Of a DNA stretch of 64,000 bases, positions 11,512 to 64,000 are shown in pieces (the first letter of the stretch is position 1; every line of letters begins with the position of its first letter). This DNA comes from Raja brachyura (Eukaryota), in the NCBI GenBank assembly GCA_963514005.1, contig OY740813.1, forward strand, positions 16,120,001 to 16,184,000, written 5' to 3'. The notes beneath the pieces were generated by a model that saw nothing but the letters and a program-made list of their open reading frames with translations, was not told the origin of the DNA and searched no databases. Both the position numbers and the translations under genes were made by a program.

Positions 11512-11539
11512 GACGTTTCGGGCCGAAACCCTTCTTCAG
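11512..11539 (-). ncRNA. Minimal type I hammerhead ribozyme motif (mirror copy)
   Basis: Exact reverse complement of 11541-11568. Confidence 0.7.
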
Positions 11540-11540
11540 T

Positions 11541-11568
11541 CTGAAGAAGGGTTTCGGCCCGAAACGTC
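11541..11568 (+). ncRNA. Minimal type I hammerhead ribozyme motif
   Basis: CTGAAGA-A-GGG-tttcgg-CCC-GAAAC-GTC: CUGANGA core, helix II, GAAA, palindromic ACGT helix III and GUC triplet. Confidence 0.7.
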
Positions 11569-14055
11569 GCCTATCTTCTTCGCTCCTTAGATGCTGCTGC
11601 ACCCGCTGAGTTTCTCCAGCCATTTGTGTACCCTCGATTCGCCAGCATCTGCAGTTCCTTCTTTAACACTTTGCCTACTTTCAATGACTGGTGTTCCATG
11701 ACACCCAGGTCTCGTTGCATCTCCCCTTTTCCTAACTTGCCACCATTCAGATAATAGTCTACCCACCTGTTTTTGCCATCAAAGTGGATAACCTCACATT
11801 TATCCACATTATACTGCATCTGCCATGCATTTGCCCACTCACCCAGCCTATCCAAGTCACCTTGCAGCCTCCTAGCATCCTCCTCACACCTAACACTACC
11901 TCCCAGCTTAGTGTCATCCGCAAACTTGGAGATGTTGCATTCAATTCCCTCGTCCAAATCATTAATATATATTCTAAATAGCTGGGATCCCAGCACTGAG
12001 CCTTGTGTAATTCTTTGTAATTGCAACTTTTGCTCATGGACTTCCTTTAACATGGAAAAACTTTCCAAAGTACTTCCCAGAAGTGTTAAAAAACAGGCAA
12101 AACTGGCTATTCAAGTAAATTGGATCCAGCAGCTCATTCTTGGTTCTTAATGCCGTTTTTATATCCCAAATGCAAACTAGATACTTATGGGTTCATATGT
12201 GAAACTTGCATTATTCTTAAAATATTCCAGTTCAAAAAATATTCAAAAACAGATTAATTCTCCTAGACTTTAGCCCCTCAGTGCCTGAAAATTCTTTCTC
12301 ACTTAAAAGCTCTGACTCTGTTTTCAGGTTACGCCTCAGCTTGATATGTCTTTAGTACACATCGTGTACTGTTGAATTTTCTGAGAAAACCCTAAAAAAT
12401 GAATAATTAGCCTTGGTGGATTGAATGCTGATGCAGTCAAAACCTTACTAGATCTCTCAGTGTTAGGTTATGAGGAGAAATGAAGTCAGCTTATATTCCC
12501 AAACATATAAAAGATTACAACTGATGTTCGAAAATAATTGATGGAGTAGATACAAGGATTGATGGAGTAGATCCTGACAGTAGCGGTATCCAGGGCATTA
12601 AGATTTAACCTGGAGAATAGGTTGAAACTAGAAAACAATTCTTCAAGCATAACGTGGATGCATCTAACTTTTTCCCACAAAAAATACCAGCTGGTGACTC
12701 ATTTATCAATTCCAAATTGAGGGGTTCAGTACATTTTTGCTGTTCAAACGTTTTGTTATTAAAGGATGTCAATCAGGGATGGACAGATGGATTTAGGACA
12801 GGTGGGCCATGTTCCCTCTGAATTACAGTGTAGAGTTAAGGGATGAATGTCCTATACCATGTTCCTGTTTCTTTTCAAAGATGATTATTGAAAATAGAAT
12901 GGCATAGATTTTGCTCAGAATTTACTACTTTAAGCCAGAACTGCTGCAAAGGAAACTTCCTCAACAAATCTGGGTCTAGACCAGCAAGATCTCATGCAAC
13001 ACATAGATCGATTATTGATCGAATTACAATGCTTGGATACAAGTCACCCACAAGGCATAAGCAGCAGGTAAAATTGTCAAACAGCTCAAATATTTGTGAA
13101 TTACAACTCACAAATCTTCTGATCTCAGATTTTAAATTATTAATCAGTGTCAAAGAGTCATACAACACGGGAACAGGACCTTGGGCCCAACTTCCTCATG
13201 CCGACCAAGCAGCCCCACCTGCTCTAGTCCCACCTTCCCACCAGGCCCATATCCTTCCAAACCTTTGTGCTGCTTTTTGAGGGAGATATTTACATTCTTC
13301 CAACATATGCCTGAGAAATCTAATTTCTCACTTGGCCTTGGCTCTGTTTTTATTGTTATGACCCATGGTTATGTTCAAGATTTTTGGCAACTTCTAATAG
13401 CAGTCGATGTCTCTCTGCTTCCTTAATCAATTCCTTTCAAAATCCTAAAACCCAAGACTATAACTAGTGCAACCTTGTAAGATTTTCTCCATTCAAATAT
13501 TATGACAATTATGCTCATGGCAACATGGCCAAACCACAATCGAAAAGTAGCCCTAAAACATTTTGGAGTCAGTAGAAAGACAGCCTAAAATGACTTGTTT
13601 GAGGACAGTGGACTATATATAGGATAATTGGGAAGGTTATCCTTGTTCCCCTTCATTCAAAGCCAGGTAGCATTATTGCAACTTAATGTTTCCAAGGAAC
13701 AACATTTCATTGTTAAAATGTAGACAGAAATTGATATCATGTTAATTTATCCAGGCACAATGAGGAATTTGGTCTTTCCAGGTTACTCCTGTTTCTAAAC
13801 ATTAGGACTCCTCTTTTATATCTCTGTTTGGTATGCATGGAATCTCAGCAACAAACTTAAATTATCAAAGGATACTCTCTGTGCTTTTGAGACAATTAAC
13901 TACCTTTGCTTTTCTTCTCAGAAACAAGGCTAGACATGACATGGCATTTAAAAGCAGCCACTGCATTTACACAATTTCATACTTCCATCTTTAATAAATT
14001 CAAAATAGTATTAGTAGTCTCTAATGCTGAATGTTAAGTCTTCTGGTCACTCATA

Positions 14056-14248
14056 AGGGCCTGTCCCACTTATGAATTTTTTTCGGCGACTTGCCGGCAC
14101 CCGTCATTGTCGCAGCAGGCTGCTGAAAATGTTTAACATGTTGAAAATCCAGCGGCGACCAGAAAAAGATATGACTCTTTGGGCGACTACTAACGGACAT
14201 ACAGGCGACATGTCGCGGGGTGACGCCTGTATGGTTGTCCACCAGTGG
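14056..14248. mobile_element. Truncated PIF/Harbinger-type MITE (one TIR)
   Basis: Begins agggcctgtcccact, the same TIR start as the element at 31873. No matching right TIR seen. Confidence 0.6.
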
Positions 14249-14249
14249 T

Positions 14250-15478: not shown

Positions 15479-17431
15479 TAAGTCACTCCAACATCAAGTG
15501 TATAGTTCCTGATGTGTATTCTACAGACAATGTGATTGCCAGTGTAAAATCAATGCAAGATATCATAGACTTATAGATTCAGCATTGGAGCAGACCCATT
15601 CGTACACTGCATCTATGCCAACCATCATGCCTATCTATACCAATCCCATGCATTCATTTAATATCCCTCTGCCTTTTTCCTATCATTGATTAGGCTAAAG
15701 GTTTCTCTATGATAGATTATTTAAAAAATAATAGAAGTTTCCATGCCTTTAGAATAACAATGACGTGAAGAGTGTGTGGGATTTTCTTCTGGATATGATG
15801 AACATTTTAGTGATAGGATGAACAGGAACATATTTCACATAAAATAGATTGAGAATAAAGGGGACAAGATAGCGATTGACACAGAAAGGTTTATGAGCAC
15901 ATGTGGAGCATGATAAGAATATCAGGACCAGAACTGTCATTGGGTTCAAAGAACAAAGACTTTAAAACACTTTGCAGGGATAATGGAATAAGAACAGAAA
16001 GTACTGGAAACTCTCAGCAGGGCAGGCAGCAGCTGTGGAAAAACAAGCAGAGTTAAGTTTTGAGGCTGAGACCCTTCCTCAGAACTGGAAAAGTGAGTCC
16101 AGAACATTTTTACCTTTGAATCAGAATGTTACCTATTTTAGTACCACAAAGGAATCTCAACATATAATGTATGATCTGCTCCGGTTCAGTGTTATAGTGT
16201 TATCCTTCAGACAAGTTGTTAAAACAAACTCCTGCGTATCTGCTCACGCTAGCAAAAATGCATAATTCAACCCAAAGCTGTTGTGTCCCGATCAACATTC
16301 CTTCCTCAAAACTTCACCAGTGGCTGTTTTTGGCAATTTATTGTACATGATAGCTGCATTAGCTTCCACGTCATTACTGTAGATAATTCCTTGTATGTTT
16401 GGCACTTGAAAATATTTTGATGACTAAAAGGAAGATGTTTTACGAACTGATGAAAGAGAATGAAACTGTGACATCCCCTCTTTTGCACCAAGCTGACATG
16501 TAAATGCTTGTAAATAAAACGGTCTTTAAAATAATGGACAGAGAATGCCATGCAAATGCATTAAATGTTCAATTACTACCAGCAGTATTTTTTAGCCTTG
16601 GCTCTACTGGAAATAGAAGCAGTAATTATTAAACAATTAAAGTGCTCAGAACAAGGTTTGCAGCACCACAGTAGGGAGAGAAACATTCTGGTAGCATCGA
16701 GATCCAACTCCCTGTCAAAGTGTTTGTAACATCAAGAGCCAACTCCCTGTCAAAAGTATGGTGTTCGCAATCTATCGTGTGCTTATTAATTATCATTTTT
16801 ACCATTTGGAGTTCACGTCCTAGGCCATTCTAATAAAATATATATGATCTATCTTCCCAGGCATTGTGTGATAAAAATACAATCTGACCTCCAAGGTGAG
16901 TATGTAAACAAGCTAAGAACAGAGTATGGAAAACAAATAACTTCTCCAATATCCTCACAAAGAGTCCAGTAGTTTCTGCTTCACATTAAATAATGAAATC
17001 CCATAAAGAGAAATCCGAACATGATTTCTAATAATTTATATTGAATTAAATGAGAATGCTCAAGGAAAAGGTAATTGAAATCTTTCATGGCAGGAAGCAT
17101 CCTCTCCCTCTCACAGAAGAAATAAACTCAACCAGTTTCCAGGAGGTCCTAAGGTATAATATGGCTGGTTTGGATTGTGCCTGCCATCGGCCAGCTCTGC
17201 TGGTCTTGATCCATGTGCAGGACCATGATATATGACTGCCACTGCCTAGTTTTCTGCCAGGAGCTTGCACCATTCTTAAAAGGGAGGTCAGCCAAAAGAG
17301 CATAAAAGTGCACCTCAGTAGAAAGGACTGTAAATCTCACCTCTATAAGATTATCCTCAGCCTCCTGTGCTCCAAGGAATAACATTCTAGCCTGCCTAAG
17401 CTCTTCCTTTAACAATTCCTTTGAATCATGG

Positions 17432-24282: not shown

Positions 24283-26058
24283 TTCATTCTTCAGTTATCT
24301 GACTACATTTGGTTTGTTTGTAAGTTATACTGCCAGTGAGTTACAGAATGGGCTTTACTTCACAAAGCAGCAGTTGTTCACAAGGTTCGGCAGAATGTGA
24401 ATCAACCAGACGTTCTGCTTCAGTCTGCCTTGAAGAAACTCTGATCAACTTTACAGAAAAAACTCTATATTTACTAAATATTGATTACCTGATGAAAGAC
24501 AACATCTCCAAACCATATCGTAAAAACAAAAACTTCTGGTGAGTTTGGACCCAGGGACAGTATGGGATGGGAGGAGAAGTACAGAAAATTAATTCTTCTG
24601 CCTTAATGCGTCATGAGCATGAGCATGAGCCAAACCCAAAGCCATTCAATCAATGTCTGAACCTGGCCACGCTGCCAATGCAGTAATTTGTTGAATGGAA
24701 AAAAAGACAAAGTGCTGGCGTAATTCATCAGGTCAGGCGGTATCTGTGGAGGACATGGATAGATAATGTATCAGGTTGGGACCCTTCTTCAGATTCAGGA
24801 TTTCAGGTACCTACATTCTATCCGTCACTTCTCAGTGCACCAAACCCTTGTGCACACTTCCAGCTCATTAATAGGCATGCAGTCAAATCTAGTCACCAGT
24901 GGATCAACGGGGTAAGAAAAGAAACAGACCTCTTGCGAGGGAAATCTGATCCAGTGGAGTCCTTGACAAAATGTTTGAAGCATTTTCTTGCCATCAGAGA
25001 GAAAAGTACCAGATCCCATGGCAACACAACCACTTGGCATCTTGGTTGTCTTGGACAAGTTGGGCCGGAGGGCCTGTTACTGTGCTATACGAGTCTATCA
25101 CTCGATGACTAGTCAAGATTATTAATAAAATACTTCAAAGATGTCTGCATTGCCCACACCATGGTACCGATAGCAGCTGGATAGACCACCTCCTAATCTG
25201 TCATCTCCATCAATGTGATTCAAGAGTCAAGATTCAAGAGAGTTTATTGTCATGTGTCCCTGATAGGACAATGAAATTCTTGCTTTGCTTCAGCACAACA
25301 AAACATAGTTGGCATGACTACAGAACAGATCAGTGTGTCCATATACCATTATATAAATATATACACACATGAATAAATAAACTGATGAAGTGCAAATAAC
25401 AGATAATGGTCAATTAATGTTCAGAGTTTTGTCCGAGCCAAGTTTAAAAGCCTGATGGCTGTGGGAAGTAGCTATTCCTGAACCTGGTCGTTGCAGTCTT
25501 CAGGCTCCTGTACCTTCTACCTGAAGGTAGCAGGGAGATGAGTGTGGGGCCAGGGTGGTGTGGGTCCTTGATGATACTGCCAGCCTTTTTGAGGCTGAGA
25601 CTGCGATAGATCTCCTCAATGGAAGGGAGGTCAGAGCCGATGATGGACTAGGCAGTGTTTACTACTTTTTGTAGTTTTTTCCACTCCAGGGCGCTCACGT
25701 CGCTGAATCAAGCCATGATGCAACCGGTCAGCAAGCTCTCTGCTGTGCACCTGTAAGTCCACCTTGACAAACCGACTCTCCGTAATCTTCTCAGGAAGTA
25801 GAGGCGCTGATATGCTTTCTTAATAATTGCATCAGTGTTCTCGGACCAGGAAAGATCTTCAGAGATGTGCACGCCCAGGAATTTGAAGCTCTTGACCCTT
25901 GCAACCATCAACTCGTTGATATAAACGGGACTGTGGGTCCCCATCCTACTCCTTCCAAAGTCCACAATCAGTTCCTTGGTTTTGCTGGTGTTGAGGGCCA
26001 GGTTGTTGTGCTGGCACCATATGGACTGTCGCTCGATCTCTCTTCTATACTCTTACTC

Positions 26059-28749: not shown

Positions 28750-29515
28750 GTGAGGAAGGAACTGCAGGTGTTGGTTTACACCAAAGATAGACACAAAATG
28801 CTGGAGTAATTCAGCGGGACAGGCAACATCTCTGGTTAGAGGGAATGAGTGAGATTTCGGGTCGAGACCCGTCTTCAGACTGAGAGTCAAGGGAGTGGGA
28901 GACACAGAGAGATGGAAGGGTAAGGTGTGAAAATGAGACATTAAAGGGGACGAGGGTCAAAGAAAATGTATAATAGATCATTGTTAGCGAGGGGAAGGTG
29001 ACAATGAAGCATCCAACGATGAGGTTAAATCAGGAGAATGGTCAGACTGGTCAGAGAACTAGGATGGGGGAGGGATGGAGAGAGAGGGAAAGCAAGGGTT
29101 AATTGAAGTTAGAGAAGTCAATATTCATAACGCTGGGTTGTAAGCTGCCCAAGCAAAATATGAGGTGCTGTCCCTCCATTTTGCGTTGATACGCACACAG
29201 ACAATGGAGGAGGCCCAGGACAGAAAGGTCAGTATGGGAGTGGGTGTTAAAGTATTCAGCAACCAGAAATCATGTAAGTTTAGGTGGTGTGAGCAGAGGT
29301 GTTCAGCGAAACGATCGCCGAGGCTGCTGTTGGTCTCGCCGATATAGAGGGGTCCACACCTGGAACAGTGGATACCATAGATGAGGTTGGAGGAGGGGCA
29401 AATGAACCTCTGCCTCACCTAACTGTCAGGGTCCTTGGACAGAGTCGAGGGAGGAGGTATAGGGACAGGCGTTGCATCTCCTTCGGTTGCATGAGAAAGT
29501 ACCTGGGGAGGAGTG
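28750..29515 (-). mobile_element. Penelope-like element 3' part with decayed GIY-YIG endonuclease
   Basis: PGTFSCNRRRCNACPY...RQRFICPSSNLIYGIHCSRCGPLYIGETNSSLGDRFAEHL (LIY/YIG motifs with Cys knuckle). The 3' UTR ends with a degenerate hammerhead (28851-28878) and the gatgctgg/gaactgc terminus. Confidence 0.9.
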
Positions 29516-29676
29516 GATTGTCTCCATTTTGTCTTGTGCTATCACCATAATGTCTGCCACATGCAGCAAGATGTGGACAATACCTAGATTTGGGGTGAGA
29601 AGTGGAGAGTGATATTTGGCCAGGCTCGCACCCAGCAAAGTAGAGTTCAATTACGTTTTATGTTCCCAATACAATT

Positions 29677-30020
29677 ATGTTCCCAATGTTGGGTGAGTCC
29701 AGAACCAGGGGCCACAGTCTTGGAATAAAGGGGAGGTCATTTAAGACTGAGGTGAGAAAAAAACTTTTTCACCCAGAGAGTTGTGAATTTATGGAATTCC
29801 CTGCCACAGAGGGCAGTGGAGGCCAAGTCACTGGATGGATTTAAGAGAGAGTTAGATAGAGCTCTAGGGGCTAGTGGAGTCAAGGGATATAGGGAGAAGG
29901 CAGGCACGGGTTATTGATAGGGGACGATCAGCCATGATCACAATGAATGGTGGTGCTGGCTCGAAGGGCCGAATGGCCTCCTCCTGCACCTATGTTCATA
30001 TGTTTCTATGCTTCTATATG
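29677..30020 (+). mobile_element. 5'-truncated young CR1 3' end
   Basis: Nearly identical to 4837-5171. Its tail is interrupted by a Penelope-derived piece and resumes at 30115-30133. Confidence 0.92.
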
Positions 30021-30114
30021 TCTGAAGAAGGGTCTCAACCCGAAACGTCGCCTATCTCATTCGCTCCTTAGATGCTGCTGCACCCTCTGAGTTTCTCCAG
30101 CCTTTTATGTACCT
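30021..30114 (+). mobile_element. Short Penelope-derived insertion carrying an intact hammerhead core (30022-30049)
   Basis: CTGAAGA-A-GGG-tctcaa-CCC-GAAAC-GTC followed by gcctatctcattcgctccttagatgctgctgcac, the same family as 11541-11632. Confidence 0.8.
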
Positions 30115-30349
30115 TCTATGTTTCTATGTTTCTTTAATATTCAATAAATTATCCTCACACATAGCAAGCAGCACAAAAGACCACAAGCCACTCCACTGAT
30201 ACATCAATCACTAACCTGAACATCCTCCTTCTCCCCAACCAGTGCTCCGTGATGCAGTCTACACTGAAAGATATATTGTGCAATGATTCACCAGGACTAA
30301 GCAGGACCTCCCAAACCATGAATTCCATCATCAGGAAAGGACACAGGGG

Positions 30350-30443
30350 ATAGACACAAAATGCTGGAGTAACTCAGCGGGACAGGCAGCATCTCTGGAG
30401 AAAAGGAATGGGTGACGTTTCGGGTCAAGACCCTTCTTCAGAC
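30350..30443 (-). mobile_element. Penelope-derived end with intact hammerhead core (30414-30441)
   Basis: Reverse complement reads CTGAAGA-A-GGG-tcttga-CCC-GAAAC-GTC-acccattcc. Confidence 0.8.
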
Positions 30444-32585: not shown

Positions 32586-32944
32586 ATTAAAAACATGTGA
32601 GATTAAAATATTTTATAAATTATCTGTATGACCTTCAACACCAAAGACACCACTTGTGATGCACGACAATGTTTCAATACAACAGAAAACTAATGTCAAT
32701 TTCAGGTCAAATTAATTTTCACTGTTGACAACCAGGCTCATACCCAGATCAGTGATCTGGATTCAGTTGCTAACATTAAAAGGGAGGGAAATTATTTGAA
32801 AAAGTTTGATTTGTGCTCTTCTTCCATCACAACATAGCTAGGGTCTTGCCAACTGTCCAACATCTCAATGTAGCAAATTTCTCAAAGTTCACTCCCCCTT
32901 GATCCCTTTATGCTTTCTTCCGATGAAGTAACACCCACTTATGG

Positions 32945-33152
32945 TGTAGACACAAAATGCTGAACTCAGCGGGAGAGGCAACATGTCTGGATAGAAGGAA
33001 TGAGTGACGTTTCACGTTGAGTCCATTCTTCAGACTGTCTTGTCCCAAAATGTCACCCATTCCTTCTATCCAGAGATGCTGCTGGTCCTGCTGAGTTACT
33101 CCAGCATTTTGTGTCTATCTTCAGTGTAAACCAGCATCTGCAGTTCCTTCTT
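32945..33152. mobile_element. Older palindromic Penelope-derived element
   Basis: tagacacaaaatgctg...gacgtttc...ttcttcag followed by its inverted copy gtcacccattcc...cagcattttgtgtcta and the terminus ccagcatctgcagttccttc. Confidence 0.75.
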
Positions 33153-35332: not shown

Positions 35333-36017
35333 CCCAGTACCAGGCCACCTCAGTCAATGGCAAGAATATCCAACCATTGTTGGTGATAAACAAGAACATT
35401 AGATTGCCAACCTCTGCTCCTTCTGAGTTGCACTGAACATGGCAAAATACTAAATTAATGAATGAGGGAGAGGCTTTATTATTTAATTTCACACCATGAT
35501 ATTCCGAGCACATGTTGAGTCCCAAGATCCCTCCCTGAACTGTAGACCACTGCTGTGTCTGCAGGTCGGTCTTGTCGTGTGAGTGGTGGGCTTCAAGGGA
35601 CCGGGGTGAAGAAGTCTGAGTCCTGCTCGGTGGCTCTGAATGTATATATGACTAATATCCACAATTGTTTGACTCGTCCCTATGCCAACTCTCATTTTTG
35701 TCACCAGTTCCCAATGTAAAAGTGGAGGATATTGTAATATTGACGAGGTTTTTCTTGTCCCCGGCCTTGTCCTCGTGTCTCCATTACAGTCAGGTCTTGC
35801 ATTTTGTCCTGTGTTGAATTCAACTTCGCAAAAGATCATATGGGTTTGAACTCCACTCTCTGATTATTGTTTGTAAGTCCAGACCTTTAAATAACTAATT
35901 CAAACCCACATTATGCTCTACGAATCACCGCAAAGTATATTTAAGATCTTCTACACATGTTGATGGATTGAATTCCAGTGAAACAGATGATGCGGCGTCA
36001 TCGTAGAATGTAGATTG

Positions 36018-36135
36018 AAGGAAGGGCAGATGCTGGTTTACAAAACCAAAGACACAAAGTGCTGGAGCATCTCAGCGGGTCGGGCAGCATCTCTGGACTA
36101 TATGGAAAGGTGACGTTGCGGATCGGGACCCTTCA
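36018..36135 (-). mobile_element. Penelope-derived end with degenerate hammerhead
   Basis: cagatgctggttta...gacacaaagtgctggagc...ggtgacgttgcggatcgggacccttc. Confidence 0.7.
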
Positions 36136-37454: not shown

Positions 37455-38770
37455 ACGAAGATAGACACAAAATGCTGGAGTAACTCAGAGGGACAGGCAG
37501 CATCTCAGGAGAGAAGGAATGGGTGATGTTTCGGGTCGAGACCCTTCTTCAGACTGGTTAGGGATCAGGGAAACGAGAGAGATAGATGGTGATGTGGGGA
37601 GATAAAGAACAATGAATGAAAGATAAGCAAAAAAGTATCGATGATAAAGGAAACAGGCCATTGTAAGCTGTTTGTAGTGTGAAAATGAGAAGCCAGTGCG
37701 ACTTGGGTGGGGTTAGAGATAGAGAGAGAAGGAATGCCAGGGCCCGAGGGCTGAGGGAGAGGTGGGAAGGGGAGGAGACAGCAAGGATTAACAGAATTGA
37801 GAAAAATCAATGTTTAAGCCCAGAGGATGCAGACTCCCCAAGCGGAATATGAGGTGCTGTTCCTCCAGCTTGCGGTGTTGCTCACTCTGGCCGTGGAGGA
37901 AGCCCAGGACCGAGAGGTCGGATACGGAATGGGAGGGGGAGTTGAAGTGCTTGTTATCGGGGGAGATGGAGATACAGAGATAAGGAAGTGTAAGGTGTGA
38001 AAACAGGACAATGGGAATCGAGATTTAGGAAAATGCAGAATAGATCATTGTTGTCTGGGAGAAGGCAACAACAAAGCAAACTGAGATAAACTAGCCGGAG
38101 GCGGTAGGACCGATCGGAGAACTGGGAGGGGGAGGGATGAACAGAAAGGGAAAGCAATGGTTACCTGAAGTTAGAGAAGTCAATGCCCATACCGCTGGGG
38201 TGTAAACTGCCCAAGCGAAATATAATTTGCGCTGGGCCTCACTGTGTCAGATTTCGCTTGGGCATCTTACACCCCAGCGGTATGAACATTGATTTCTCGA
38301 ACTTCAAGTAACCCTTGCTTTCCCTCTCTCTCCATCCCTCCCATTTCCCATTTATGTAGTTGGAGTCAGCCCTACTGTCTCCGACTACAGTTCTACATCT
38401 CTGTTTGCTGTGTTGTTACATTCTCCCAGCTAACTGTTCTACATTTTCTGTTAAAGAAGGAACTGCAGATGCTGGAGAATCGAGGGTTACACAAAAGCTG
38501 GATAAACTCAGCGGGTGCAGCAGCATCTAAGGATTGAAGGAGATAGGCGACGTTTCGGGTCGAGACCCTTCTTCATCTCGATTCCTTTGTCCTGTTTTTC
38601 ACACCTGACACTTCCTCATCTCAGTATCTCCCTCTGCCCTGACATCAGCCCGAAGAAGGGGCTCGACCTGTCACCCATTGCTTCATCCCAGAGATGCTGC
38701 CGGTCTCGCTGAGACACTCCATCATTTTGTGTCTATCTTCGGTTAAAAACCAGCATCTGCAGTTCCTTCA
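37455..38770. mobile_element. Composite Penelope-like cluster (tandem and inverted 3' ends)
   Basis: Minus 37803-37952 encodes KHFNSPSHSVSDLSVLGFLHGQSEQHRKLEEQHLIFRLGSLHPLGLNIDF (C-terminus of the PLE GIY-YIG domain). Inversion centred near 38235. Hammerhead-like cores at about 37525-37552, 38549-38576 and 38650-38675. Confidence 0.85.
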
Positions 38771-39569
38771 TAAACGTAAAATAGTTTAATTGTTTTCAAA
38801 TAAACCTGTTCCAAGTCTATTTTAACGCGAATACTTGATATTTCCGTCCGTTAAAATGGGTATTTGCTGGTGCCGGCGATAGAGAGCCGCCGGATAAGCG
38901 AGGACCCCATGAAATAAAAAAATTATCCTCAACTCCACACTGACAATATCTCCGTTACAATAACCATCCCCAGACGATTACGAAGCAATTCAACATAGAA
39001 CAATAACTACAGCACAGGAAGAGGCCTTTTGAACTCGTCTCCCTGTCTGCACATCTTCCATATATTCTCAGCCAAAAATGATCATTCCCGCTCAAGGTGG
39101 CCAAGATCCAACAATGTGACAATTGGAAGTTGAGTGGGGTTTTTTTTCCAATTGAAAAATGCAACTAATCTGTGATGTTTGTCCCTTTCCCCGGGATCCA
39201 CGGTAGGCGGAGTAAGCGCCAGGAAGATTCTGCTGATGTGAGTGGTCGGTATTGACTCGGCCACCACAGTCATGAAGAACGGGAACAAGGCCTTCGGCCC
39301 AAAACGGAGTCTTATCACAGAAATGTCATCACTTCACCGGCATCGCGTCCATTACCAGTCCCGACCTCTTCAGCCCTGGCCAGATGCTCGGGATGAGTTT
39401 TTCTGAAGCCAGTCCAGCGCCCATTTACTCCGCTCTCCCGTTTATCTCTCACACCCTGTCCCGGCCTCTCCATCTGGGTTTTATATCTCTGCCTAGCCGT
39501 GTGGCATAACTCGGGCCAGCGATCAATGGCCCAACTTAACCTTCTCGCTTCCCGCCAGGCATTAAAGTT

Positions 39570-39665
39570 TGGGAGGTAGACAAAGGTGCTGGAGAAACTC
39601 AGCGGGTGCAGCAGCATCTATGGAGCGAAGGAGATGGGCAACGTTTCAGGCTGAAACCCTTCCTC
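39570..39665 (-). mobile_element. Short Penelope-derived end
   Basis: gtagacaaaggtgctggagaaactcagcgggtgcagcagcatctatggagcgaaggagatgggcaacgtttcaggctgaaaccctt, flanked by repeated gcattaaagtttg (39559 and 39667), a likely TSD. Confidence 0.78.
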
Positions 39666-40399
39666 TGCATTAAAGTTTGACCATCTCACCCAAAGATCTC
39701 TAGTATCTTTGATCTCACCCAGCGATGTCAGACGATTCCGTTTCCGACCTGTTCCCCGCAACAGTCAGGAAGTCGCTTAAAGTTCGCAATCTGAGTGGAG
39801 TTTCGGGCCGGATTCGTCCAGTGGTGCCCGACGCTGATAACCTCACCGGCGACCCTGCGTGACATCTTTCATCATGAATGTTCAGCCCGATTGAGGCAAG
39901 TTAGTATTGACTGACATCCCTAATATAGCGAGGATGCCATCCATACAGCTGCCGCTGCGGAGGCATTTTCTTTCCTCGCCATAGTTAACACCCCCTCTCT
40001 GTCCCGCTCAGGGCGAAGATTGCAACAATACAACTCAAACATATTCAAAGCCCCGGCCCGGGCCTTCAGACCCCAAGAATCCTTCCAGCCGTTCGGCCCA
40101 TCGAGTGAGCCCCGTTCCGGCAACAAGGGGATCCGCGTTGGCGGTGGCGGGAGGACAGGAGAGGGAGACTTTGATTCCGGTCGTAGACAACACAAACTTT
40201 TTGTTCACTTCACAGAAACATTTTCTGTTTTACCGCTGGTATCAGTTAACTGCATTTTGCCTTCCTAATTTGCAATTAAAATCATTCAATGACAGAGCCG
40301 GGGAGACATACAGAGCGGAAACAATCGTTAGGTCCATTTCGTCCGGACTGACCAAGTTGTCTGACTAACCCTGTACCTGGCCGATATCCAGCTACATTT

Positions 40400-47642: not shown

Positions 47643-47735
47643 GTCTGAAGAAGGGTCTCGACCCGAAACTTCACCCATTCCTTCTCTCCAGAGGTGCTGC
47701 CGGACCCGCTGAGTTACTCCAGCGTTTTGTATCCA
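47643..47735 (+). mobile_element. Penelope-derived end in barhl1 intron 1 with variant hammerhead core (47645-47672)
   Basis: CTGAAGA-A-GGG-tctcga-CCC-GAAAC-TTC-acccattcc...gctgagttactccagc. Confidence 0.8.
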
Positions 47736-50700
47736 TTGTCAGTCAAAGAAACGTGTCAAAGAAACGACAAATTCCATTGCCCGACTCTGTGTGTTCGGGG
47801 TCCCGTGACCACTAAGGGGAGGCCAGGGACCCAAAAGTTTAAAATACATACCTTGTTTTTTTTAACATGAGAGCGGTTCTAAATGTGGATATTGGCCTTT
47901 GCGTACTTCGGATTTTTTTTTTAAAACAATATTTCCAATGTTAAAATCTTACGAGTGGGACGTGAGCAGATGTAGTGCAAAGCGGAAAAGGGGATAAGGT
48001 CAGAAGGAGTGAGACAGACTGGTGTCTGCGAGGTGTGTGGTACGAGGGGGCTTGAGAGATAGCTGGCACAGTCAGAACTCATTCATCAGGGCTGAGATGA
48101 ATGAGTTTCTTGCAAACCCGGCATCAATAAATAAAAACGTGCCCGTGTGTGCGAGAGAGTTATTAAAAGTACAGATGGTAGCAAACTTCAAAAAATAGTG
48201 GATATTGAGCCTCACGCTCCCAGCGCGGGAGACGTTAAACTGCATCAGTGGCTTTCAATCAGCTGAGAGTCTAGAATAAACGAATGTCGGACTGAAACGA
48301 TAACCTGTCAACGCTGGCGCAGCTTAACATGAATCAAAAGAATCATTCCAGACCAGTGAGCTACACTGGACCAGGGCTCATTGTGATATGATTCAAACAG
48401 AACGACGAGGAAACGGAAAACTTCCCAAGGCCAGCCTCAACAACAGGGGGGAAATGTGGCTGTTCTCGAGAGAATATAACTTCGTTTCAGCGGCTGCAGA
48501 TTTAGTTTCGAGCCCTGCTTCCAAATGTGAGCCTATTTTCTATCATCGATCTTTAAAGTTGGGGAGCTCCAATCTAAACTTTGATCGAAGTTTGTTGCCC
48601 TTTTAAAAAAAAATCAGAAATTCAGGCATTAAACCTTCAAATTGTAGTATTACATTTATATTTATTTAGACCAAAACTTAAAACATTTCACCTGGTTTCC
48701 AGGTTTTTTTTCTGTTTTAAAAAAATGTATTTTTAAAAGATGAAAAAATGTTAATAATAATCCAGGTATTTTGAAAACTTCTAAAAAAAAGGGGGGACTC
48801 TTTGGACTCAAATAAATGTAAACCCCAATTGTTTGTCCGTCGCTGCCGCGCCACGCTGAAACGAAATGTTTCTTGTGGAGCGGTTCCCGGCGCCTGGCTC
48901 GGGGTAACTTGCAGTTTTCACCGAGCTGACGGCGGCTGCAGTGGCGCCCACACATAGTCATTCACTCGCCGTGTTGGTACCAGCGCGAGGGCTGAAGCAT
49001 TGGAAAGAAAAAAAATGAATGGGAGTGTAATTTTATTTTTCAATAATTGAACAAAAAACCTTTTATTTTGCAGTTCTGGTACATTAATAAAATAAATGCA
49101 ATGATTTATTTGGCACCTGAACATATTTGCATGTTCACAGACAATAAAACTTTTATTTTTCTGGAAGATAATCAGCGGTCTGTCTCCTTGTTATTCATGG
49201 TCACGAAACGAAATATTGCAACTAATCCGGTAACTGGAACCTTCAGATTCAGGCGCTGGAGCGGCGCTTGCTTTGGTGAAATCAATAGAAGTTATTTGAA
49301 GTTTTAAGAGGCTGTTACTTTAACCCCATTTTTTTTTTTTTGCCTGAGGTGGTCTGGCATTTGTACCACGGAAAGTGTTCTTCCCACGTGCGTTTAACCG
49401 ACTGAAAACACGTTGACTGATGATCATTGCACCGGTTCACCTCTTTCTGTGCACCGGGGTTAGATCGCCTTGTGTGTGTGTGTGAGTGAGTGAGTGCGTG
49501 GAACTTTGGCTGTTAGAACTGTGCGCAGTTAGTGCAGGGAGCGTGTTGTGCCGGGCTGCATGCTCAGTTGAAGGGGAGAAATATTTGCTTCAGTCTGTGT
49601 TTGTATATTTGTCGGCAGCTAAAGTCTAAGTACGCCATGTAAACGTAGAGTCTGTGAAGAACGAAGCGGCGGCAAATCGCTGCAGAAATCACCGCTCGCT
49701 GTCAGCTGAAAACCCGAGCTGGGTTCAGGCGGAATATGTAGCAGTTCAGATGGCCCCTGTCCACCGCCCTTCACATTATTGTGGTCGCCTCGCCGACACG
49801 TTTAGGTTTCACTTTAATTTGCGAGATAATCCTATGATCAGTTTTATTTCGAAGGATTCTGGCGTTAATCGGCTTTGTTAGTTTCTGAAGGGACGGGTGC
49901 GATTTAATTTGTAAAACACGAGTTAAATGTACGGGATCCCCCACTTTCCTATGGCTAATCGACGCAGTCAGCTTCAAGCGATCGGTGTAAAGTCGCTAGG
50001 TAATCCTGTGATCAGTTCTTTTTTTTTTAAGGGTAGTTCAAAGAATGAGTCTCTAATCGGCCGACTTGCTGTTTGAGTCTCCCCTGGTGATTCAATTAAA
50101 TGGATTATTTCCTTCCTGGTCCGTGGAATTAGATCTCGGAATGTCTCTCCTTTCTGCCCTCTCCTCTCTTCTCACTGAACAACAACAACCACCACACGGT
50201 AAATGCAAACAAAGACCGACTGGATGTGTCCTTCACATCCTACCTGCCGGCACACCACAACCTCAGCTTCCTCAATGGCCAGCGTCAGCGGCCGAGTGGC
50301 GCTTAACCCAGACAGCCTTATAATGAATGTGAAAGTCTCATAATAGCAGACGGAAAAATAGCTACTAACGGGAGTTGCAACTTACTGGGGCGAGTGGGGG
50401 AGAGATTGAGACACAGTCAGATAGCGGGCATGAGATGGCGAGAAGTGTCCAGTAATTATAAGCTAGGTTGGGGATAATGGGAGCAAGTCCACGCCACCGC
50501 TGGGAGTGGGGATGGAATAGAGTGCCGGCCTGGTGCCCGTGTTCCGAGAATTTACCAGATTCCCCGCTGTGAATCCAGAACTGACCGTGTAACCCTGGGC
50601 TTCTCAATGAATGCGCAGTGGCCAAGGATGTACACTCACTTTAAGGGAAGCTGACAATCTTCAGCTTCCGACCAAGAGTTATTATTGTTGCTGGCGATGA

Positions 50701-51129: not shown

Positions 51130-51395
51130 TGAGACACACAGAACCACAACTATCGCGCACAAAGCCCGTGAATAGGAAGCTATCACACACCGGGAGGTAT
51201 TTAATTGGGATGCCGCTGTTATAGGGTTGAAAATGTGAAATGGGACTAGTGCTGGTCCCAACCATTCGCCGACCCTCGGATCAGGCAGATCACAACAATA
51301 CAATCTGGGCATGGGGAACGACCCTCAAAGAGAAAGTCAAAAACTAGTCAAAAAGTTGCAGGTGCGAGTATGAATCGCAGCAGCTTCAATGAGAG

Positions 51396-51527
51396 TTTAA
51401 GAAGGAAATGCAGATGCTGGAAAATCGAAGGTAGACAAAAATGCTGGAGAACCTTCGCGGTTGAGGCAGCATCTATGGAGCAAAGGAAATAGGCAACGTT
51501 TCGGGCCGAAACCCGTCTTCAGTCTGA
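51396..51527 (-). mobile_element. Penelope-derived end in barhl1 intron 2
   Basis: ttaagaaggaaatgcagatgctgg...ggcaacgtttcgggccgaaacccgtcttcag. Minus strand reads CTGAAGA-C-GGG-tttcgg-CCC-GAAAC-GTT. Confidence 0.8.
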
Positions 51528-53517
51528 TCAACAAGTCGGACTCAGGGTTGGCAACTTAGTGTCTCAGGACTAGAGAGAAAGTGGGAGGGAAGAAAGGGGG
51601 CGGGGGGCGGGGGGGCGTCTTGACGGTGCCATAAGGTTGCCATTTATTATGAGGTGGGGCGAGGAAAGTGTGAACCATTTCTTGGGCACCGGCGGCTGTT
51701 AAGGACTTTATCTGAGGGCCATTGGATGACCAATCCCACCCGCGCAGTGATAGTTCTAACACCTGGGGCCAGTTACTGGATGCAACCGCATTCAAAACCC
51801 TGAGCATGAACCAAACCACACACCTGGAACACAAACTGAACCGAAATAATCTAATTCGTATGAACTCTGGGTTTAACAAGGTGAACACTCTGTCTCTATG
51901 CAAGCGCTCACTGGAGGTTTGTACGGTCAGAATCAATAGAATAGTGAGCTACCCTTAACTGTATACAACGAACAAGGTCAATATTGCTGTCTCGAGGTAG
52001 ATGCCGAGCGAGAACATTTGCAGAAGGCGCCGCACACTACTTCACCTGGAACCCGCTGCATATATGTGCGATGTTGCAGTTGCCCCGTGGGTAGTACGTG
52101 GGGGAGGAATCTGCCAAAAATAAATGTAAATAAATAATCCGGAAATAATGTTGCTTTAAAGTCCAAACTAACAATCCGCTCAATCCAAAGTATCTGGAAA
52201 ACTGGTCCTAAGGGGGGGGGGGGGGGGGGGCACCAAACCGAACGAGTACCTCAACTCAACCTGCCCTCATCCCGTCAACATCTGCATCATCCCGCAACAT
52301 CTGCATGCACAAGCACTGGGCGGGTTCCTCTCTCCCAGCAGCGTAGCCTTGCAATCAACCCCAATGCAGAGGAGAATTCGTTGGATTGTATGTGGTGCGA
52401 TGTTTATCGCGCAAGTTTCTGGAAGCGTGGCCCGTCCCTGCGCTATCTGCCTGCGTTCACCTGAGTTAAGTTTCCTCAATTTGATCCAAATATAAGGTAG
52501 TCTTCCTGAGATGAAAGAATAATCAATGATTGAACTGCCGGGTCTTAGTATAGGTACAGCACGTTGCAATATCCAATTTCTTATCATCCTGTTAACACCT
52601 ACACAGTTCAGAAAATAATTAGAAATAGCAGCTTTTTTAATCACGCGAGTTTGCTTTAGGATTAGCAGACACCTGTCACTAAGACGCCCCCACACGGCCC
52701 CCGCTTCCCTCCCTCCGCCCAGAGTGCGTAGCACGTATGCACCTAAACAGGGAACCTACACTTAAGCAACAATTATCAAGACGAATTTGTCGTCCAGTTT
52801 GGGTATTAAAGACTTAGTCAGGATTCACAGACCACGTTACTTAAACAATCACTTTGGTTTAGTCCCATAGGAAAGGGCGCATGGATTCAGGCAAGGTTGT
52901 TAGTCCGGGGGTTATCCACACTAGGAGCTGCAATTACTAATGCACATCATTCAAACTACTCTCGAAACTCTGGCCAGCAGAGGAGATGGCGAACCCCGTC
53001 TGCTGATAAGATATAACGCAAAGATAAGCCATTATCTCGGAGCAACCTGAGGCGAAGTTACATAAAGCTGTCAGACTAACCGAGGCAGAGAATTCTGCCA
53101 GGGGTGGGCCCCACTTCAGACAGAGTTTACACAGTAGTCCCTGTGCTATTTATAACTCAGACGGGCAAATGCCAACGTGTGTGCGGCTGATCTTATGTGT
53201 GTGTTGTGTACACACATCACAACATACGCACGCATAATTACAGGTTCATAAGAAATAAAACCAGAACAATTAAGGAAAGACAAGGAACTAAAGATGCTGG
53301 GATCTTGAGCAAAACATAAAATGCTGGAGGAACTAAGCGGAATGCTCAAGGCTGAGTTACTGCAGAATTTGTGCTTTGTACACACATTAAGCCTAGATTG
53401 TGATGTAACTCTCCCTATTCACAGCGTTTCATTAATGTCTTCGCCACATTCAGATGCTTTGTGGTTCTCTCGGATTGTCTAAAATCAACAATTGCAAGAT
53501 AAATGTCGTAATCATCC

Positions 53518-56228: not shown

Positions 56229-56520
56229 GACGAAGTGGAAGAGGCAAACGGCGGTGGGGCTGGAACTCTTGGCCGAGGCCGGCAACTACTCAGCTTTGCA
56301 GCGCATGTTCCCATCACCTTATTTCTACCACCCCAACGTCGTGTCGAACCTGGACCCGACTGCCATGTACATGTACCGGGGTCCCGCCGCCCCGCACCCC
56401 GTCATCCAGCGGCCCATCGTCCCCCGAGTGCTCATCCACGGACTGGCAGCGGGAGGCGAACAACCTCCGCCCCTGCCCGGCCTCGCAGGCGTCCTTCCCC
56501 GGCCGCCGCAGCCTCGGTGA
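56229..56520 (+). CDS. barhl1: BARHL1 coding exon 3 (end of homeodomain and C-terminus)
   Basis: Acceptor ttcccctccccaacag. (R)TKWKRQTAVGLELLAEAGNYSALQRMFPSPYFY...GVLPRPPQPR-TGA. Spliced CDS 451+223+292=966 nt, 321 aa plus stop. Confidence 0.97.
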
Positions 56521-61794: not shown

Positions 61795-61920
61795 AACAAG
61801 GAACTACATATGCTGGTTTCCACACAACGATACAAAATGCCGAAAGAACTCAGCTCGTCAGGCAGCATCTCTGGAGAACGTGGATGCGTGACTTTACGGG
61901 CCTGGACCCTTCTTCAGTCT
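61795..61920 (-). mobile_element. Degenerate Penelope-derived end
   Basis: aaggaactacatatgctgg...caggcagcatctctggag...ggacccttcttcagtct. Confidence 0.65.
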
Positions 61921-61923
61921 CCC

Positions 61924-62438
61924 ATAGACATATACGTGGAAAATAGGTGCAGGAGGAGGCCATTCGGCCCTTCGAGCCAGCACTACCATTCATTGTGATC
62001 ATGGCTGATCGTCCTCTATCAATAACCCGTGCCTGCCTTCTCCCCATATCCCTTGACTCCACTAGCCCCTAGAGCTCTATCTGACTCTCTCTTAAATCCA
62101 TCCAGTGACTTGGCCTCCACTGCCCTCTGTGGCAGGGAATTCCATAAATTCACAACTCTCTGGGTGAAAAAGCTTTTTTCTCACCTCAGTCTAAAATGGC
62201 CTCCCCTTTATTCTAAGACTGTGGCCCCTGGTTTCTGGACTCACCCAACATTGGGAACATTTTTCCTGCATCTAGCTTGTCCAGTCCATTTATAATTGTA
62301 TATGTTTCTATAAGATCCCCCCCTCATCCTTCTAAACTCCAGTGAATACAAGCCTAGCCTTTTCAATCTTTCCTCATATGACAGTCCCGCCATCCCAGGG
62401 ATCAATCTCGTGAACCTACGCTGCACTGCCTCAATCAC
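61924..62438 (-). mobile_element. Young CR1 3' end
   Basis: IEAVQRRFTRLIPGMAGLSYEERLKRLGLYSLEFRRMRG. Near-identical to 4735-5171 in reverse. Confidence 0.92.
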
Positions 62439-62555
62439 AATCTCAATCTCCTCCCACTCTCACAGATACCGAGCCCGCATATGCAGCAATGGTGGCTCCT
62501 AAGTACTTATTCCGCAGATACTTAAAGTTCACACCCAGTTTGGTGGTCTGGACAC

Positions 62556-62680
62556 ATCAGTCTGAAGAAGGGTCCTGCCGCCGTTGTTCATTCCCTCCAC
62601 AGATGCTGCCTGACCTGCTGAGGTTCTCCCGCACTTTGTTTTTTGCTCAGGATTCCAGCGTCTGCAGTTTCTTATGTCTC
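62556..62680 (+). mobile_element. Degenerate Penelope-derived end
   Basis: catcagtctgaagaagggtcc...cagatgctgcctgacctgctgag...ccagcgtctgcagtt. Confidence 0.65.
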
Positions 62681-63127
62681 CAGTGACGAAGCGAGGCTGA
62701 ACCACACACACGTGTCGTTTGAGAAGGGCAAACTAGGCTTGGGACATTAAATACTCGTCGGGATACTGAGAAATATCGAGAGTGCGACTCTCCATATCTC
62801 TTCAGATAGTGGGGGGAACGGAGTGGGTTGGTTAAAATTGAGCTTCCTGGCCGATGTAGAGAGAATTGGACAAGGTGGAATCACAGAGAAAGCGCCCGCT
62901 CACTTCAGGTTACTGTAACTGGAAGGTTGTAATCGCAACAAAGAGGAGATTTAGGAGGATGTCAGGTGCGGAGAAATGTAGTTAATGATAACGTACTTGT
63001 TGGAACACCTGCTCGGTCCAAGATCAGGCACTGGGGTTAAGAAACTGCTCCTTCATTGGCAGACATGGATACAGTGGGCCGAAGGGTCTCCTGCGTTATC
63101 CCGGGTGGTGCTGTACATCTTTGTGAA

Positions 63128-63560
63128 TGAAGGAACTGTTGATGCTGGCTTAAACCGAAGATAGGCACAAAATGCTGGAGTAACTCAGCGGGTCAGGCAG
63201 CATCTCTGGAGAAAAGGGATAGGTGACGTTTCGGGTCGAGACCCTTCTTCAGGCCGAGTGTCAGGGGAGAGGGAACACAGAGATATAGACGGTACATAGG
63301 AATGAAGGATATGCAAAAAAGTGATCTTTGTTAGGCCGGTGGAATGTCAGTTGTGGCCCAGAAAAAGTTACCGTTTCCTGGAACTGAGAGAATTGGGACT
63401 GGGAGGAAAGCAACTGTGTTTCAAAAAGGTCATTGGTATGAAGAAATATCCGCCGTGGGGAGGAGGCGCGGAGACACGTTCTGCTGAATGGGGGACGTCC
63501 TCAATGGTCAACTCCCTCGGTCTCGCTTCACTCGCGGCGTGGCCTTGTTGGGCCTGTTTC
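63128..63560 (-). mobile_element. Penelope-like 3' end with intact hammerhead core (63225-63252)
   Basis: Minus strand reads CTGAAGA-A-GGG-tctcga-CCC-GAAAC-GTC-acctatccc. Continues into a purine-rich PLE 3' UTR similar to 37553-37700. Confidence 0.78.
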
Positions 63561-63899
63561 TGTGTTGTTTGACCCAATAGTTCTATGACTCCCATACTCA
63601 CGGCCCTTTCCCATCGAAGACTGAAGCATTTGCCCAGTGTCACCTATTCACATCTAGTTTGCTTCATTCAACCCCGTGTGGTGGGAAGTTTCTGCCCATT
63701 ACATTCGCCCTACAAACCTCAAAACATTTCATTGTCTCTGCCAATAAGAACTTTCAGAGAAGGCAATGATCTGGACAGGAGGCTGGATGACTGAGAATTG
63801 CTCCCGCATTGGCCTTGGGATTTCATTGGCAGTACCCCCCTCATACCCCACTCTGTCCCAGACAGGAGCTTCAAGTTGGCGATAAGAGCACAACATCTA

Positions 63900-64000
63900 T
63901 CTGAAGAATCAGTCTGAAGAAAGTTCTCGACCCTAACGTCACTATCCCTTTTCTCCAGAGATGCTGTGGACCCGCTGAGTTACTCCAGCATTTTGTGTCT
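63900..64000 (+). mobile_element. Penelope-derived end running off the window edge
   Basis: ctgaagaatcagtctgaagaaagttctcgaccctaacgtcac...gctgagttactccagcattttgtgtct. Confidence 0.75.

Follow-up and report, generated by a model that had tools for sequence, protein, structure and literature searches.

Dispersed hammerhead motifs of Raja brachyura as probable pLTR stubs of a Neptune-type Penelope-like retroelement

The hammerhead motifs scattered through the window, a 64-kb stretch of Raja brachyura DNA analysed at its full length, are, with a probability of about 0.92, minimal type I hammerheads in the pLTR of a Neptune-type Penelope-like retroelement (PLE), most copies being dead, decaying short stubs. 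Minimal hammerheads (min-HHRs) were described in the pLTRs of the metazoan PLEs Xena, Poseidon and Neptune by Cervera and De la Peña 2014 (PMC4209133), whose available text names no cartilaginous fish. Because the carrier is a PLE, the motifs are of an already described kind, and the finding is correct but not new in kind. An earlier note had read them as a ribozyme family: the anatomy and abundance it proposed stand, its reading of loop variants as a structured RNA does not, and the carrier PLE was missed.

A profile built from 10 window copies, which themselves match by construction, gave 29 matches in the window at E<=0.5 (23 at E<1e-4), among them all 17 places named in the earlier note. 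When sequences were screened for structure, requiring CUGANGA, one extra base or none, at least 3 bp in helix II, GAAA, paired 15.2-16.2 and UH, 7 window copies passed, against 0 in each of 5 shuffled windows. These seven comprise the five cores previously called intact, the core at 51495-51522(-), which had been listed as near-intact or variant (as 51496-51522) and is in fact intact, and the core at 33006-33033(-), which passes though its helix II has decayed, giving 6 intact cores in total. Of the other near-intact or variant cores, two have G16.2 changed and the third lacks C3 (Table 1). An Rfam scan of the window at E<=5 returned 5 matches, none to a hammerhead family. The suggestion that the genome is rich in the motif was borne out: the proposed pattern, searched exactly, had 43,441 and 43,497 matches on the two strands, which are thus balanced, and the reversed pattern 0 and 0. 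The resulting 86,938 cores compare with ~9,000 in X. tropicalis and ~4,000 in coelacanth (PMC4209133), counted with different descriptors.

The core positions C3-U4-G5-A6-N7-G8-A9, G12-A13-A14, A15.1-U16.1 and H17 are fixed in 5/5 subfamily majorities, N7 varying; between subfamilies, 0/11 catalytic versus 18/63 downstream columns vary (Fisher p=0.056). Like min-HHRs (PMC4209133), the window copies combine CUGANGA and GAAA-UH with an extra base between 9 and 10.1 (A, twice C, in agreement with the earlier note), a G10.1-C11.1 pair and a loopless palindromic 15.2-16.2; the two downstream subfamilies noted before are also present. Helix II, formerly drawn as 3 bp with a 6-nt loop, is GGGU/ACCC or GGGU/GCCC, that is, 4 bp with a 4-nt loop; helix I has 2 bp in the young families, compared with 7-8 and 4-5 bp for the two helices in Schistosoma (PMC4209133). 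Changes in helix II and helix I keep pairing through one-sided U-A to U.G substitutions. A clean two-sided substitution was not found among the families compared, and where the old family seemed to covary on both sides of 10.1-11.1, the pattern was indistinguishable from CpG decay. Counting positions from C3 = 0, the 14 old-family copies have T in 9, T in 12, G in 6 and A in 7 cases at positions -1 to -4, facing AACT; this makes a helix I of 4 bp, whose upstream side was outside the search pattern.

That the motif only mimics a hammerhead, its count being owed to repeat copy number, is barely credible. Mimicry does have a precedent here, as a second hammerhead-like pattern with 512 matches (control 0) is a LINE coding region in antisense; it was rejected as a ribozyme family when its other strand translated to the LINE region of window 11201-11445. 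The present motif, however, is found in the pLTR in sense orientation, the place known for PLE hammerheads. It also shows the additional base, G10.1 paired with C11.1 and a palindromic 15.2-16.2, and in the older family helix I is one pair longer, on each of its two strands.

The carrier was identified from full 4-kb copies in the genome, organised as pLTR, RT and GIY-YIG ORF, pLTR, with one core per pLTR in L072 and L073, as in min-HHR elements (PMC4209133). A single open frame of 1203 codons in L071-L073 matches RVT_1 at 687-855 (E 3e-4) and GIY-YIG at 1107-1140 (E 1.5e-3), both below the Pfam cut-off, and the core lies ~235 nt behind the stop codon. The pLTRs are direct in L072 and L073 and inverted in L078. 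A CX4CX2C linker is present in the L071 translation and at window 29426-29650; a CX2-5CxxC linker before GIY-YIG marks Neptune and Nematis PLEs (PMC8557442), between which we infer Neptune because the host is a vertebrate. Among 24 GIY-YIG loci, 19 have a same-strand unit within 600 nt downstream, whereas the controls gave 2 opposite-strand units downstream and 2 same-strand units upstream; in the window, two copies still trail a GIY-YIG remnant. The elements thus combine the traits of EN+ PLEs: a single RT and C-terminal GIY-YIG ORF, direct or inverted pLTRs, which in this class derive from partial tandems and may have a 30-40 bp tail, target duplications and frequent 5' truncation.

Table 1 Motif copies and associated features in the window
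Feature	Position	Strand	Core	Remarks
Old-family fragment	3082-3126	-		
Old-family copy	9191-9273	-		
Target duplication of pair 11450-11668, left	11434..11448	+		15 bp; target a decayed LINE RT
pLTR stub, short arm of head-to-head pair	11450..11543	-	11512-11539, intact	Ends +89
Hinge of pair 11450-11668	11540			One base
pLTR stub, long arm of same pair	11537..11668	+	11541-11568, intact	Ends +128 (tail)
Target duplication, right	11672-11686			15 bp
Much older family	15992..16083	-		4-bp helix I
Old-family copy	21552-21628	-		
Decayed stub	24700..24793	-		
Older truncated PLE, 3' end	28776..29650	-	28851-28878, helix III changed	Cys linker, broken GIY-YIG (29105-29509), 3' UTR
Solo stub	30020..30111	+	30022-30049, intact	Start -2; in another repeat's tail
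Solo stub	30341..30443	-	30414-30441, intact	Start -2; second subfamily
Older head-to-head pair	32944..33152		33006-33033(-), decayed	Arms 32944-33036(-) and 33037-33152(+); (+) arm without first 10 core bases
Decayed stub	36017..36134	-		Starts within core
5'-truncated PLE, 3' end	37465..37961	-	37525-37552, G16.2 changed	GIY-YIG C-terminus (37791-37961, 91% aa to full-length PLE protein), 3' UTR
Young stub, long tail	38449..38575	-		Start +1 (C3 missing; earlier called 38549-38576); inside older remnant ending 38775
Truncated PLE, decayed pLTR end	38629..38775	+	Partly deleted	Absent from earlier note
Stub	39571..39666	-	Start damaged	12-bp target duplication
Old-family fragment	42305-42346	+		
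Solo stub	47643..47746	+	47645-47672, G16.2 changed	Start -2; sense, between homeobox-gene exons
Long-tail stub	51395..51530	-	51495-51522, intact	Extra base C, GUU triplet; antisense, between homeobox-gene exons
Old-family fragment	53312-53373			
Decayed stub	61828..61920	-		
Decayed stub	62558..62673	+		
pLTR piece	63122..63293	-	63225-63252, intact	~40 nt upstream pLTR; long tail
Decayed stub	63910..63999	+		At window edge

The 5' ends of the stubs lie at -7 to +1 and their 3' ends at +89 to +95 or at +128, and target duplications accompany them; the earlier observation that short copies start or stop at the ribozyme therefore holds for starts, at the 5' edge of the core, and fails for stops. 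Of the 104 copies with a similarity to L073 of 90% or more, 68 start at -7 to +1. Genome-wide there are 35,267 exact young cores, 9,216 of them with 11 native upstream bases, and 4,464 break at -3 and 7,033 at -2 (11,497/35,267). A target duplication of at least 10 nt flanks 27/118 solos and 0/587 mismatched pairs. Under 1% of starts fall at the ribozyme cut site. Cleavage-defined 5' ends were rejected, as a +28 probe (311 matches, core still present in 10/20 inspected, ~155 true starts) gave only ~1.8 times the +30 control (213 matches, core present in 12/20, ~85 true starts; 20 loci each) and no clear peak, although there may be a small cleavage footprint at +28. Cleavage at the GUC at -2 to 0 was likewise discarded, with only 2/104 copies starting at +1.

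The arrangement resembles that of the Anolis carolinensis Poseidon element PAc as described by Frangieh et al. 2024 (PMC11167929), with a hammerhead at the pLTR-ORF junction, the same GAAACGUC end and two 3' ends ~35 nt apart (the tail). By analogy with this anole element, the two 3' ends very probably correspond to its two internal RT start sites. Unlike PAc, the element here has a Cys linker that points to the Neptune type, and its long frame begins behind the tail and not in helix II. The available text on PAc (PMC11167929) does not report a fixed start immediately ahead of the core such as the one observed here. Judged from these breakpoints, the RNA would, somewhat more probably than otherwise, begin 2-3 bases before C3 at an initiator-like sequence of the upstream pLTR, reverse transcription from the first pLTR giving stubs and from the downstream pLTR longer 5'-truncated copies. 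With an RNA start at this place, reverse transcription begun in the first pLTR would run off after 95-135 nt and leave a stub, and stubs would likely be reverse transcripts of the uncut front end of the element RNA; initiation in the downstream pLTR would yield the longer truncated copies.

It is possible, if doubtful, that the pile-up at -4 to 0 marks instead a splice acceptor or a strong RT stop after the core is copied. The upstream pLTR is a pyrimidine tract ending in CAG just before -1, and the intron of D. virilis Penelope ends at helix I (PMC4209133), both as a splice acceptor would have it; yet the target duplications are either directly adjacent to the unit or separated from it by 1-21 bases of variable sequence, and a common upstream exon is absent. 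An extra G precedes the start in 54/100 loci at -4 and 63/100 at -3. As proof of a transcription start this was rejected and kept as a hint only, because 7/30 loci breaking at -2 are inverted joints and several carry helix II-like bases; a template switch to helix II accounts for several extra-G junctions. Loose ends also fall at these -4 to -2 positions in the contigs of two sequencing runs, which come from two further organisms. In all, 24 runs were listed, all as contigs, 2 being recorded as RNA with small shares, and the contigs of the four runs compared show the presence of the unit, not its transcription, start or cut.

Another reading treats the unit of 95-135 nt as a non-autonomous family in its own right (SINE- or retrozyme-like), transcribed from solos, self-excising and mobilised by the PLE protein; this appears unlikely. 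Such an element would account for the 55/113 well-scoring units that start at the core with unique flanks, only 15 continuing upstream, in a sample drawn from 400 kb of evenly spaced genome stretches after 168/538 matches had been dropped (those scoring below 55, not reaching the 3' part or lying close to the edge of a locus). These class counts err both ways: some apparent solos may belong to old families of which the sample holds no second member, and the copy at 30020 was misclassed as continuing upstream because it lies inside another repeat. Solos also have target duplications, and an internal promoter could fire from them as well. PLE-derived retrozymes are described, and like these non-LTR retrozymes (bioRxiv 10.64898/2026.07.22.740005) the stubs are pLTR-derived, dispersed monomers with a type I hammerhead; the available text of that survey has one chondrichthyan genome positive. 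Retrozymes, however, are by definition tandem arrays running from cut site to cut site (bioRxiv 10.64898/2026.07.22.740005), whereas the window copies are single or head-to-head, with no head-to-tail tandem units among them, and stubs begin before the core and not at the cut site. Moreover, the commonest young solos are letter-for-letter the pLTR of full-length elements, and the 5 largest clusters contain no solo-only subfamily bar one of 6 copies. Stubs of the PLE itself fit the min-HHR pattern (PMC4209133), in which motifs are mostly single and tied to truncated elements, with opposite-strand pairs close together.

In 26/26 head-to-head pairs one long-tail arm is joined to one short arm (p ~1e-9 if arms were independent), which points to two separate priming events; 21/26 have a duplication of at least 9 nt, and in 11/26 each arm holds sequence absent from the other, although loss of the palindrome centre after insertion could mimic such non-copy arms. 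We therefore favour, with moderate confidence, a reading of pairs such as 11450-11668 as one insertion each, the two target strands having primed separate cDNAs, one per start site, whose ends were then joined at the palindrome around -1 or another short match. Inverted pLTRs, a one-arm tail, junction palindromes, target duplications, solo pLTRs and initiator-like pLTR sequence are shared with Adineta vaga Penelope (Arkhipova et al. 2013, PMC3846280); a difference is that here entire insertions are made up of nothing but the two short arms.

For the rotifer element, those authors favour self-priming on an antisense template, a reading based on its inverted-junction palindromes (PMC3846280), and the tail has been read as EN resolution (PMC8557442). 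Fold-back self-priming of one cDNA at the palindrome, followed by endonuclease trimming of one arm at +93, would likewise predict a long and a short arm here, and the arms of 11450-11668 share 3 differences from L073. We nevertheless regard it as rather improbable, the 26 pairs fitting two primings better: the short arm holds 5' sequence missing from the long arm in 11/26 pairs and the reverse occurs in only 2. Six pairs have a one-base hinge, which is too tight for a hairpin loop. Both ends are, in addition, RT start sites in vitro in the anole element, for which uncut RNA served as template and both target strands were extended (PMC11167929). A more speculative version of two primings, to which we give a low probability, has both target strands priming at once on two RNA molecules, one per start site, with the palindromic helix III acting mainly as a clasp rather than a cutter, pairing the capped front ends of the two RNAs on a dimeric RT-endonuclease. 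If that were true, the tens of thousands of near-identical stubs in the genome would preserve a fossil record of where the RNA starts, of both priming sites and of the order of the strands.

The loop variants once taken as a sign of structured RNA go back to one difference between subfamilies and, beyond that, to CpG decay of a single sequence. The general base G12 is changed in 28/111 copies compared with 58/287 at downstream CpG sites (p=0.28); since it decays as fast as these, selection does not maintain the dispersed copies as ribozymes. Changes at non-CpG positions are fewer in the core (31/885) than downstream (498/6073), which taken alone suggests selection but is confounded by the first-11-base filter and unresolved subfamilies. 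That the host retains the dispersed copies as working ribozymes, for example to cut pre-mRNA in introns, is accordingly very improbable, even with six intact window cores, little varying non-CpG core positions and a near-intact sense copy between homeobox-gene exons: G16.2 too decays as an ordinary CpG, solos keep just 2-4 bases of the helix I 5' strand, strands are balanced genome-wide, and single metazoan minimal hammerheads were uncleaved in vitro (PMC4209133).

With a helix I of only 2 bp, monomers are predicted inactive, and the monomer hammerhead fold scored -4.2 against -5.3 kcal/mol for an alternative. In a bare double-hammerhead model the dimer fold reached -6.7 kcal/mol and the best cofold -19.7 kcal/mol, which leaves even the dimer unfavoured unless it is assisted; dimer cleavage has reportedly been studied by Lünse et al. 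Single-strand folding of five stretches gave z of -1.69 to 0.79, none significant. On these models the ribozyme probably cannot cut as a monomer, and source elements would cut only as dimers via the ACGU palindrome with protein help, cut RNA not being the usual template.

The value of the finding lies in scale and regularity, the count being ~10x the largest per genome in the 2014 survey, which used another descriptor, and in a young family with intact, near-identical full-length copies. In such genomes, hammerhead counts would mostly reflect dead retroelement ends, and the antisense strand of a LINE can satisfy a hammerhead descriptor. Cut RNA would, from the stub starts, rarely be the template, in agreement with the anole experiments. 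Stub starts and pairing likely record how these elements copy themselves, and scale together with a young intact family opens several questions about PLE transposition to tests on the genome alone and in vitro: the position of the RNA start, the reason for the one-arm tail of inverted pLTRs, and whether the hammerhead cuts during transposition.

A profile built from ten window copies of the hammerhead motif gave 29 matches in the window (23 at E<1e-4), among them all 17 places that the earlier note had named, while a structure descriptor was passed by seven window copies, six of them with fully intact cores, and by none in each of five shuffles. The Rfam scan of the window did not recognise the hammerhead motif. 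That note had also proposed that the genome holds very many such motifs, which was borne out as its pattern matched exactly 86,938 times across 2.70 Gb and the reversed pattern not once. Forty 10-kb stretches, set at round-number positions across 25 contigs, contained 170 profile matches, 19 exact cores (12.9 expected from the genome-wide exact count) and 31 descriptor matches (0-1 in shuffles), two of which lay outside the hammerhead-carrying family of Penelope-like retroelements (PLEs). Extrapolated roughly, this amounts to about a million units (short pieces of the PLE terminal repeat, or pLTR, with a minimal type I core) and about 200,000 descriptor-passing cores. A LINE coding region, read on its antisense strand, also fits the minimal hammerhead descriptor, a source of false positives for ribozyme surveys, and this pattern has 512 genome matches (L196:1381-1620 and other loci in L189-L203; the same LINE region is at window 11201-11445).

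Pieces of the GIY-YIG endonuclease C-terminus lie upstream, on the same strand, of the window cores at 37552(-) and 28878(-). A genome search with one such piece identified 24 other loci, 19 with a same-strand unit at most 600 nt downstream; the three other arrangements numbered 2, 2 and 7. Searching with a reverse transcriptase (RT) piece from locus L038 returned many near-identical genome copies, three with a 1203-codon frame. Among eight copies examined, L072 and L073 have the full organization pLTR-ORF-pLTR, both repeats carrying a core, and their unit measures ~3.97 kb; L078 has an inverted pLTR. Pfam matched RVT_1 and GIY-YIG on the frame, both weakly, and the protein contains a CX4CX2C linker, a type described in the available text of PMC8557442 as a mark of Neptune or Nematis. 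Identity of the window copies to L073 ranges from 70 to 97%.

Dozens of RT copies with identical scores were spread over many contigs, several with frames >1000 codons, which marks this as a young and possibly active family. Several other organisms (coded contig sets X1-X24) share the pLTR, with as much as 0.9 of the words sampled; the family therefore either predates the species or crosses between them. In the 1203-codon frame (L073:3271-6882), some 300 residues rich in Pro, Ser and Thr (roughly 170-470) precede the conserved part, a splice-donor-like site adjoins the first in-frame ATG, and a short upstream frame begins at +50 of the pLTR (C3 of the core being 0); there may be an intron. Window 38131-38775 holds nested PLE pieces, with a young unit at 38449-38575(-) inside an older + strand remnant and two more GIY-YIG tail pieces adjoining it.

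Among LINE remnants, the window also contains exons of a homeobox gene, which we take to be BarH-like, with units at 47643(+) and 51530(-) between the exon-like stretches. The LINE 3' ends include inverted copies, 94-97% identical and 1.7 to 57 kb apart, and a GC-rich short-repeat stretch (26164-26835) adjoins the second LINE remnant.

Other features of the window
Feature	Position	Strand	Remark
Homeobox exon-like stretches	46282-46812, 50953-51129, 56152-56520	+	three stretches of one gene; Homeodomain E 7.6e-22 at 50953-51129
LINE-family 3' ends	4743-5160, 8771-9074, 10766-11408, 17523-18069, 29698-29998, 53520-54156, 61934-62440	both orientations	
Second, different LINE RT remnant	26906-27805	-	RVT_1 E 2e-17

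Ends were mapped on 104 copies that resemble L073 at the 90% level or above; they came from 97 loci plus the window. Of their 5' ends, 68 fell at -7 to +1, 19 further upstream and 17 inside the unit; 57 of the 97 loci had been chosen for an intact core, which conceals inner starts and not upstream ones. In 400 kb of unselected sequence, 113 good units comprised 55 solos starting at the core and 27 members of inverted pairs, with 16 beginning inside the unit and 15 extending upstream. Only 9,216 of 35,267 exact young cores genome-wide had the 11 native upstream bases, and breaks fell at -3 (4,464) and -2 (7,033); contigs of two other organisms showed loose ends at -4 to -2. A probe at +28, for the predicted cut between +27 and +28, gave 311 matches, half of 20 inspected being point mutants, and a control two bases further on gave 213 (12 of 20 mutants). 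Set against the young cores, this count and mutant share put cut RNA below 1% of templates. The 3' ends form two groups, one between +89 and +95 and the other at +128. Their spacing corresponds to the tail, both ends of which serve in the anole element as sites of RT initiation (PMC11167929, in part). Target duplications flanked 27 of 118 solos and 0 of 587 controls, identifying solos as insertions and ruling out recombination products.

The bases around -3 match the initiator consensus YYANWYY. G was in excess directly before the start, with G at -4 in 54 and at -3 in 63, counting the first 100 in each case (p<1e-7), as expected from a copied cap, which leaves an extra G as with L1; part of this signal is accounted for by template switches onto helix II. 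The accessible portions of earlier reports describe an internal promoter in Penelope (PMC2377424) and place the start of PLE transcripts in the upstream pLTR (PMC6765202). If the RNA began at -3/-2 and RT started internally, 95-130 bases beyond, the product would be exactly the short unit. A splice acceptor or an RT stop at the same place is a possible alternative source of the pile-up.

At window 11450-11668, the inverted pair is a single insertion, flanked by a 15-bp duplication and with one base as its hinge. The loci collected, which our searches had enriched without selecting which arm is complete, contained 26 distinct young pairs, each with one long and one short arm and 21 with a duplication of at least 9 nt; only one tail-to-tail case was found. 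The short arm of 11 pairs includes 5' sequence absent from the long arm, which in turn has the tail, and hence neither arm copies the other; in two pairs truncation goes further in the short arm. Fold-back followed by trimming or deletion (see PMC3846280, in part) is the rival explanation. Judged from the arms, pairs would be best explained by two primings, one on each target strand, and the anole protein, a predicted dimer, extends both strands according to the available text of PMC11167929.

The fold found by the descriptor consists of CUGANGA, one extra base, a 4-bp helix II with tetraloop, GAAA, CG and UH; helix III is a loop-less palindrome, ACGU, and helix I has two pairs. PLE minimal hammerheads are listed with these same marks in PMC4209133 (in part). 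A comparison of the five largest clusters among 302 copies showed variation at no catalytic position, as against 18 of the 63 columns downstream (p=0.056), and changes inside the motif were helix II U-A to U.G, a loop base, GUC to GUU and helix I U-A to U.G. An older family (126 genome matches, control 0) has different N7 bases, a loop of greater length and a helix I extended by one pair on both strands. Fourteen of 30 loci examined had the longer spacing, and in these the upstream bases at -1 to -4 were T 9, T 12, G 6 and A 7, this side of helix I lying outside the search pattern. The fixed catalytic positions and longer helix I thus suggest that source elements retain the fold, the changes seen including no clean two-sided substitution. 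By predicted energy, neither the monomer nor the dimer hammerhead is the minimum-energy fold. Published single minimal hammerheads showed no cutting (PMC4209133) and the anole hammerhead cut only in the presence of its protein (PMC11167929), as far as the sections available describe. In the unit at L073:7115-7243 (window 11541-11668), the part behind the hammerhead (+42 to +88) shows between-subfamily fixation close to that of the core, a 9-base motif is present twice, at +71 and +98, one ahead of each 3' end, and the stretch is predicted to form a long stem with the tail; region and stem are a candidate RT-binding element.

Across 111 dispersed copies, G12 was changed in 28; for CpG sites the changes numbered 58 of 287 downstream (p=0.28) and 46 of 222 in the loop. 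The loop variants, previously read as a sign of structured RNA, reflect one subfamily difference and CpG decay. As counter-evidence, non-CpG core sites were changed less than downstream sites (3.5% vs 8.2%), a low value towards which the copy filter, favouring intact first bases, is biased; unfiltered A13, A14, A15.1 and U16.1 were kept in 103-108 of 111, and fixed downstream A and T columns in 102-106. These substitutions suggest that inserted copies, unlike source elements, do not keep the hammerhead fold.

The occurrence of hammerheads in PLE pLTRs has been published before, as have inverted pLTRs, tails and solos. In the freely accessible literature searched, no report of PLE-pLTR hammerheads in cartilaginous fish was found, and one supplement file of PMC4209133 has no shark or skate entry; twin priming together with pLTR likewise appeared in no paper found in that literature. 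The accessible part of a preprint (bioRxiv 10.64898/2026.07.22.740005) describes PLE-linked retrozymes in one chondrichthyan genome, which may be the same family. Overall, the motif is real, the element belongs to a described kind and its copies are mostly dead; the value of the finding lies in its scale and in the insertion record.
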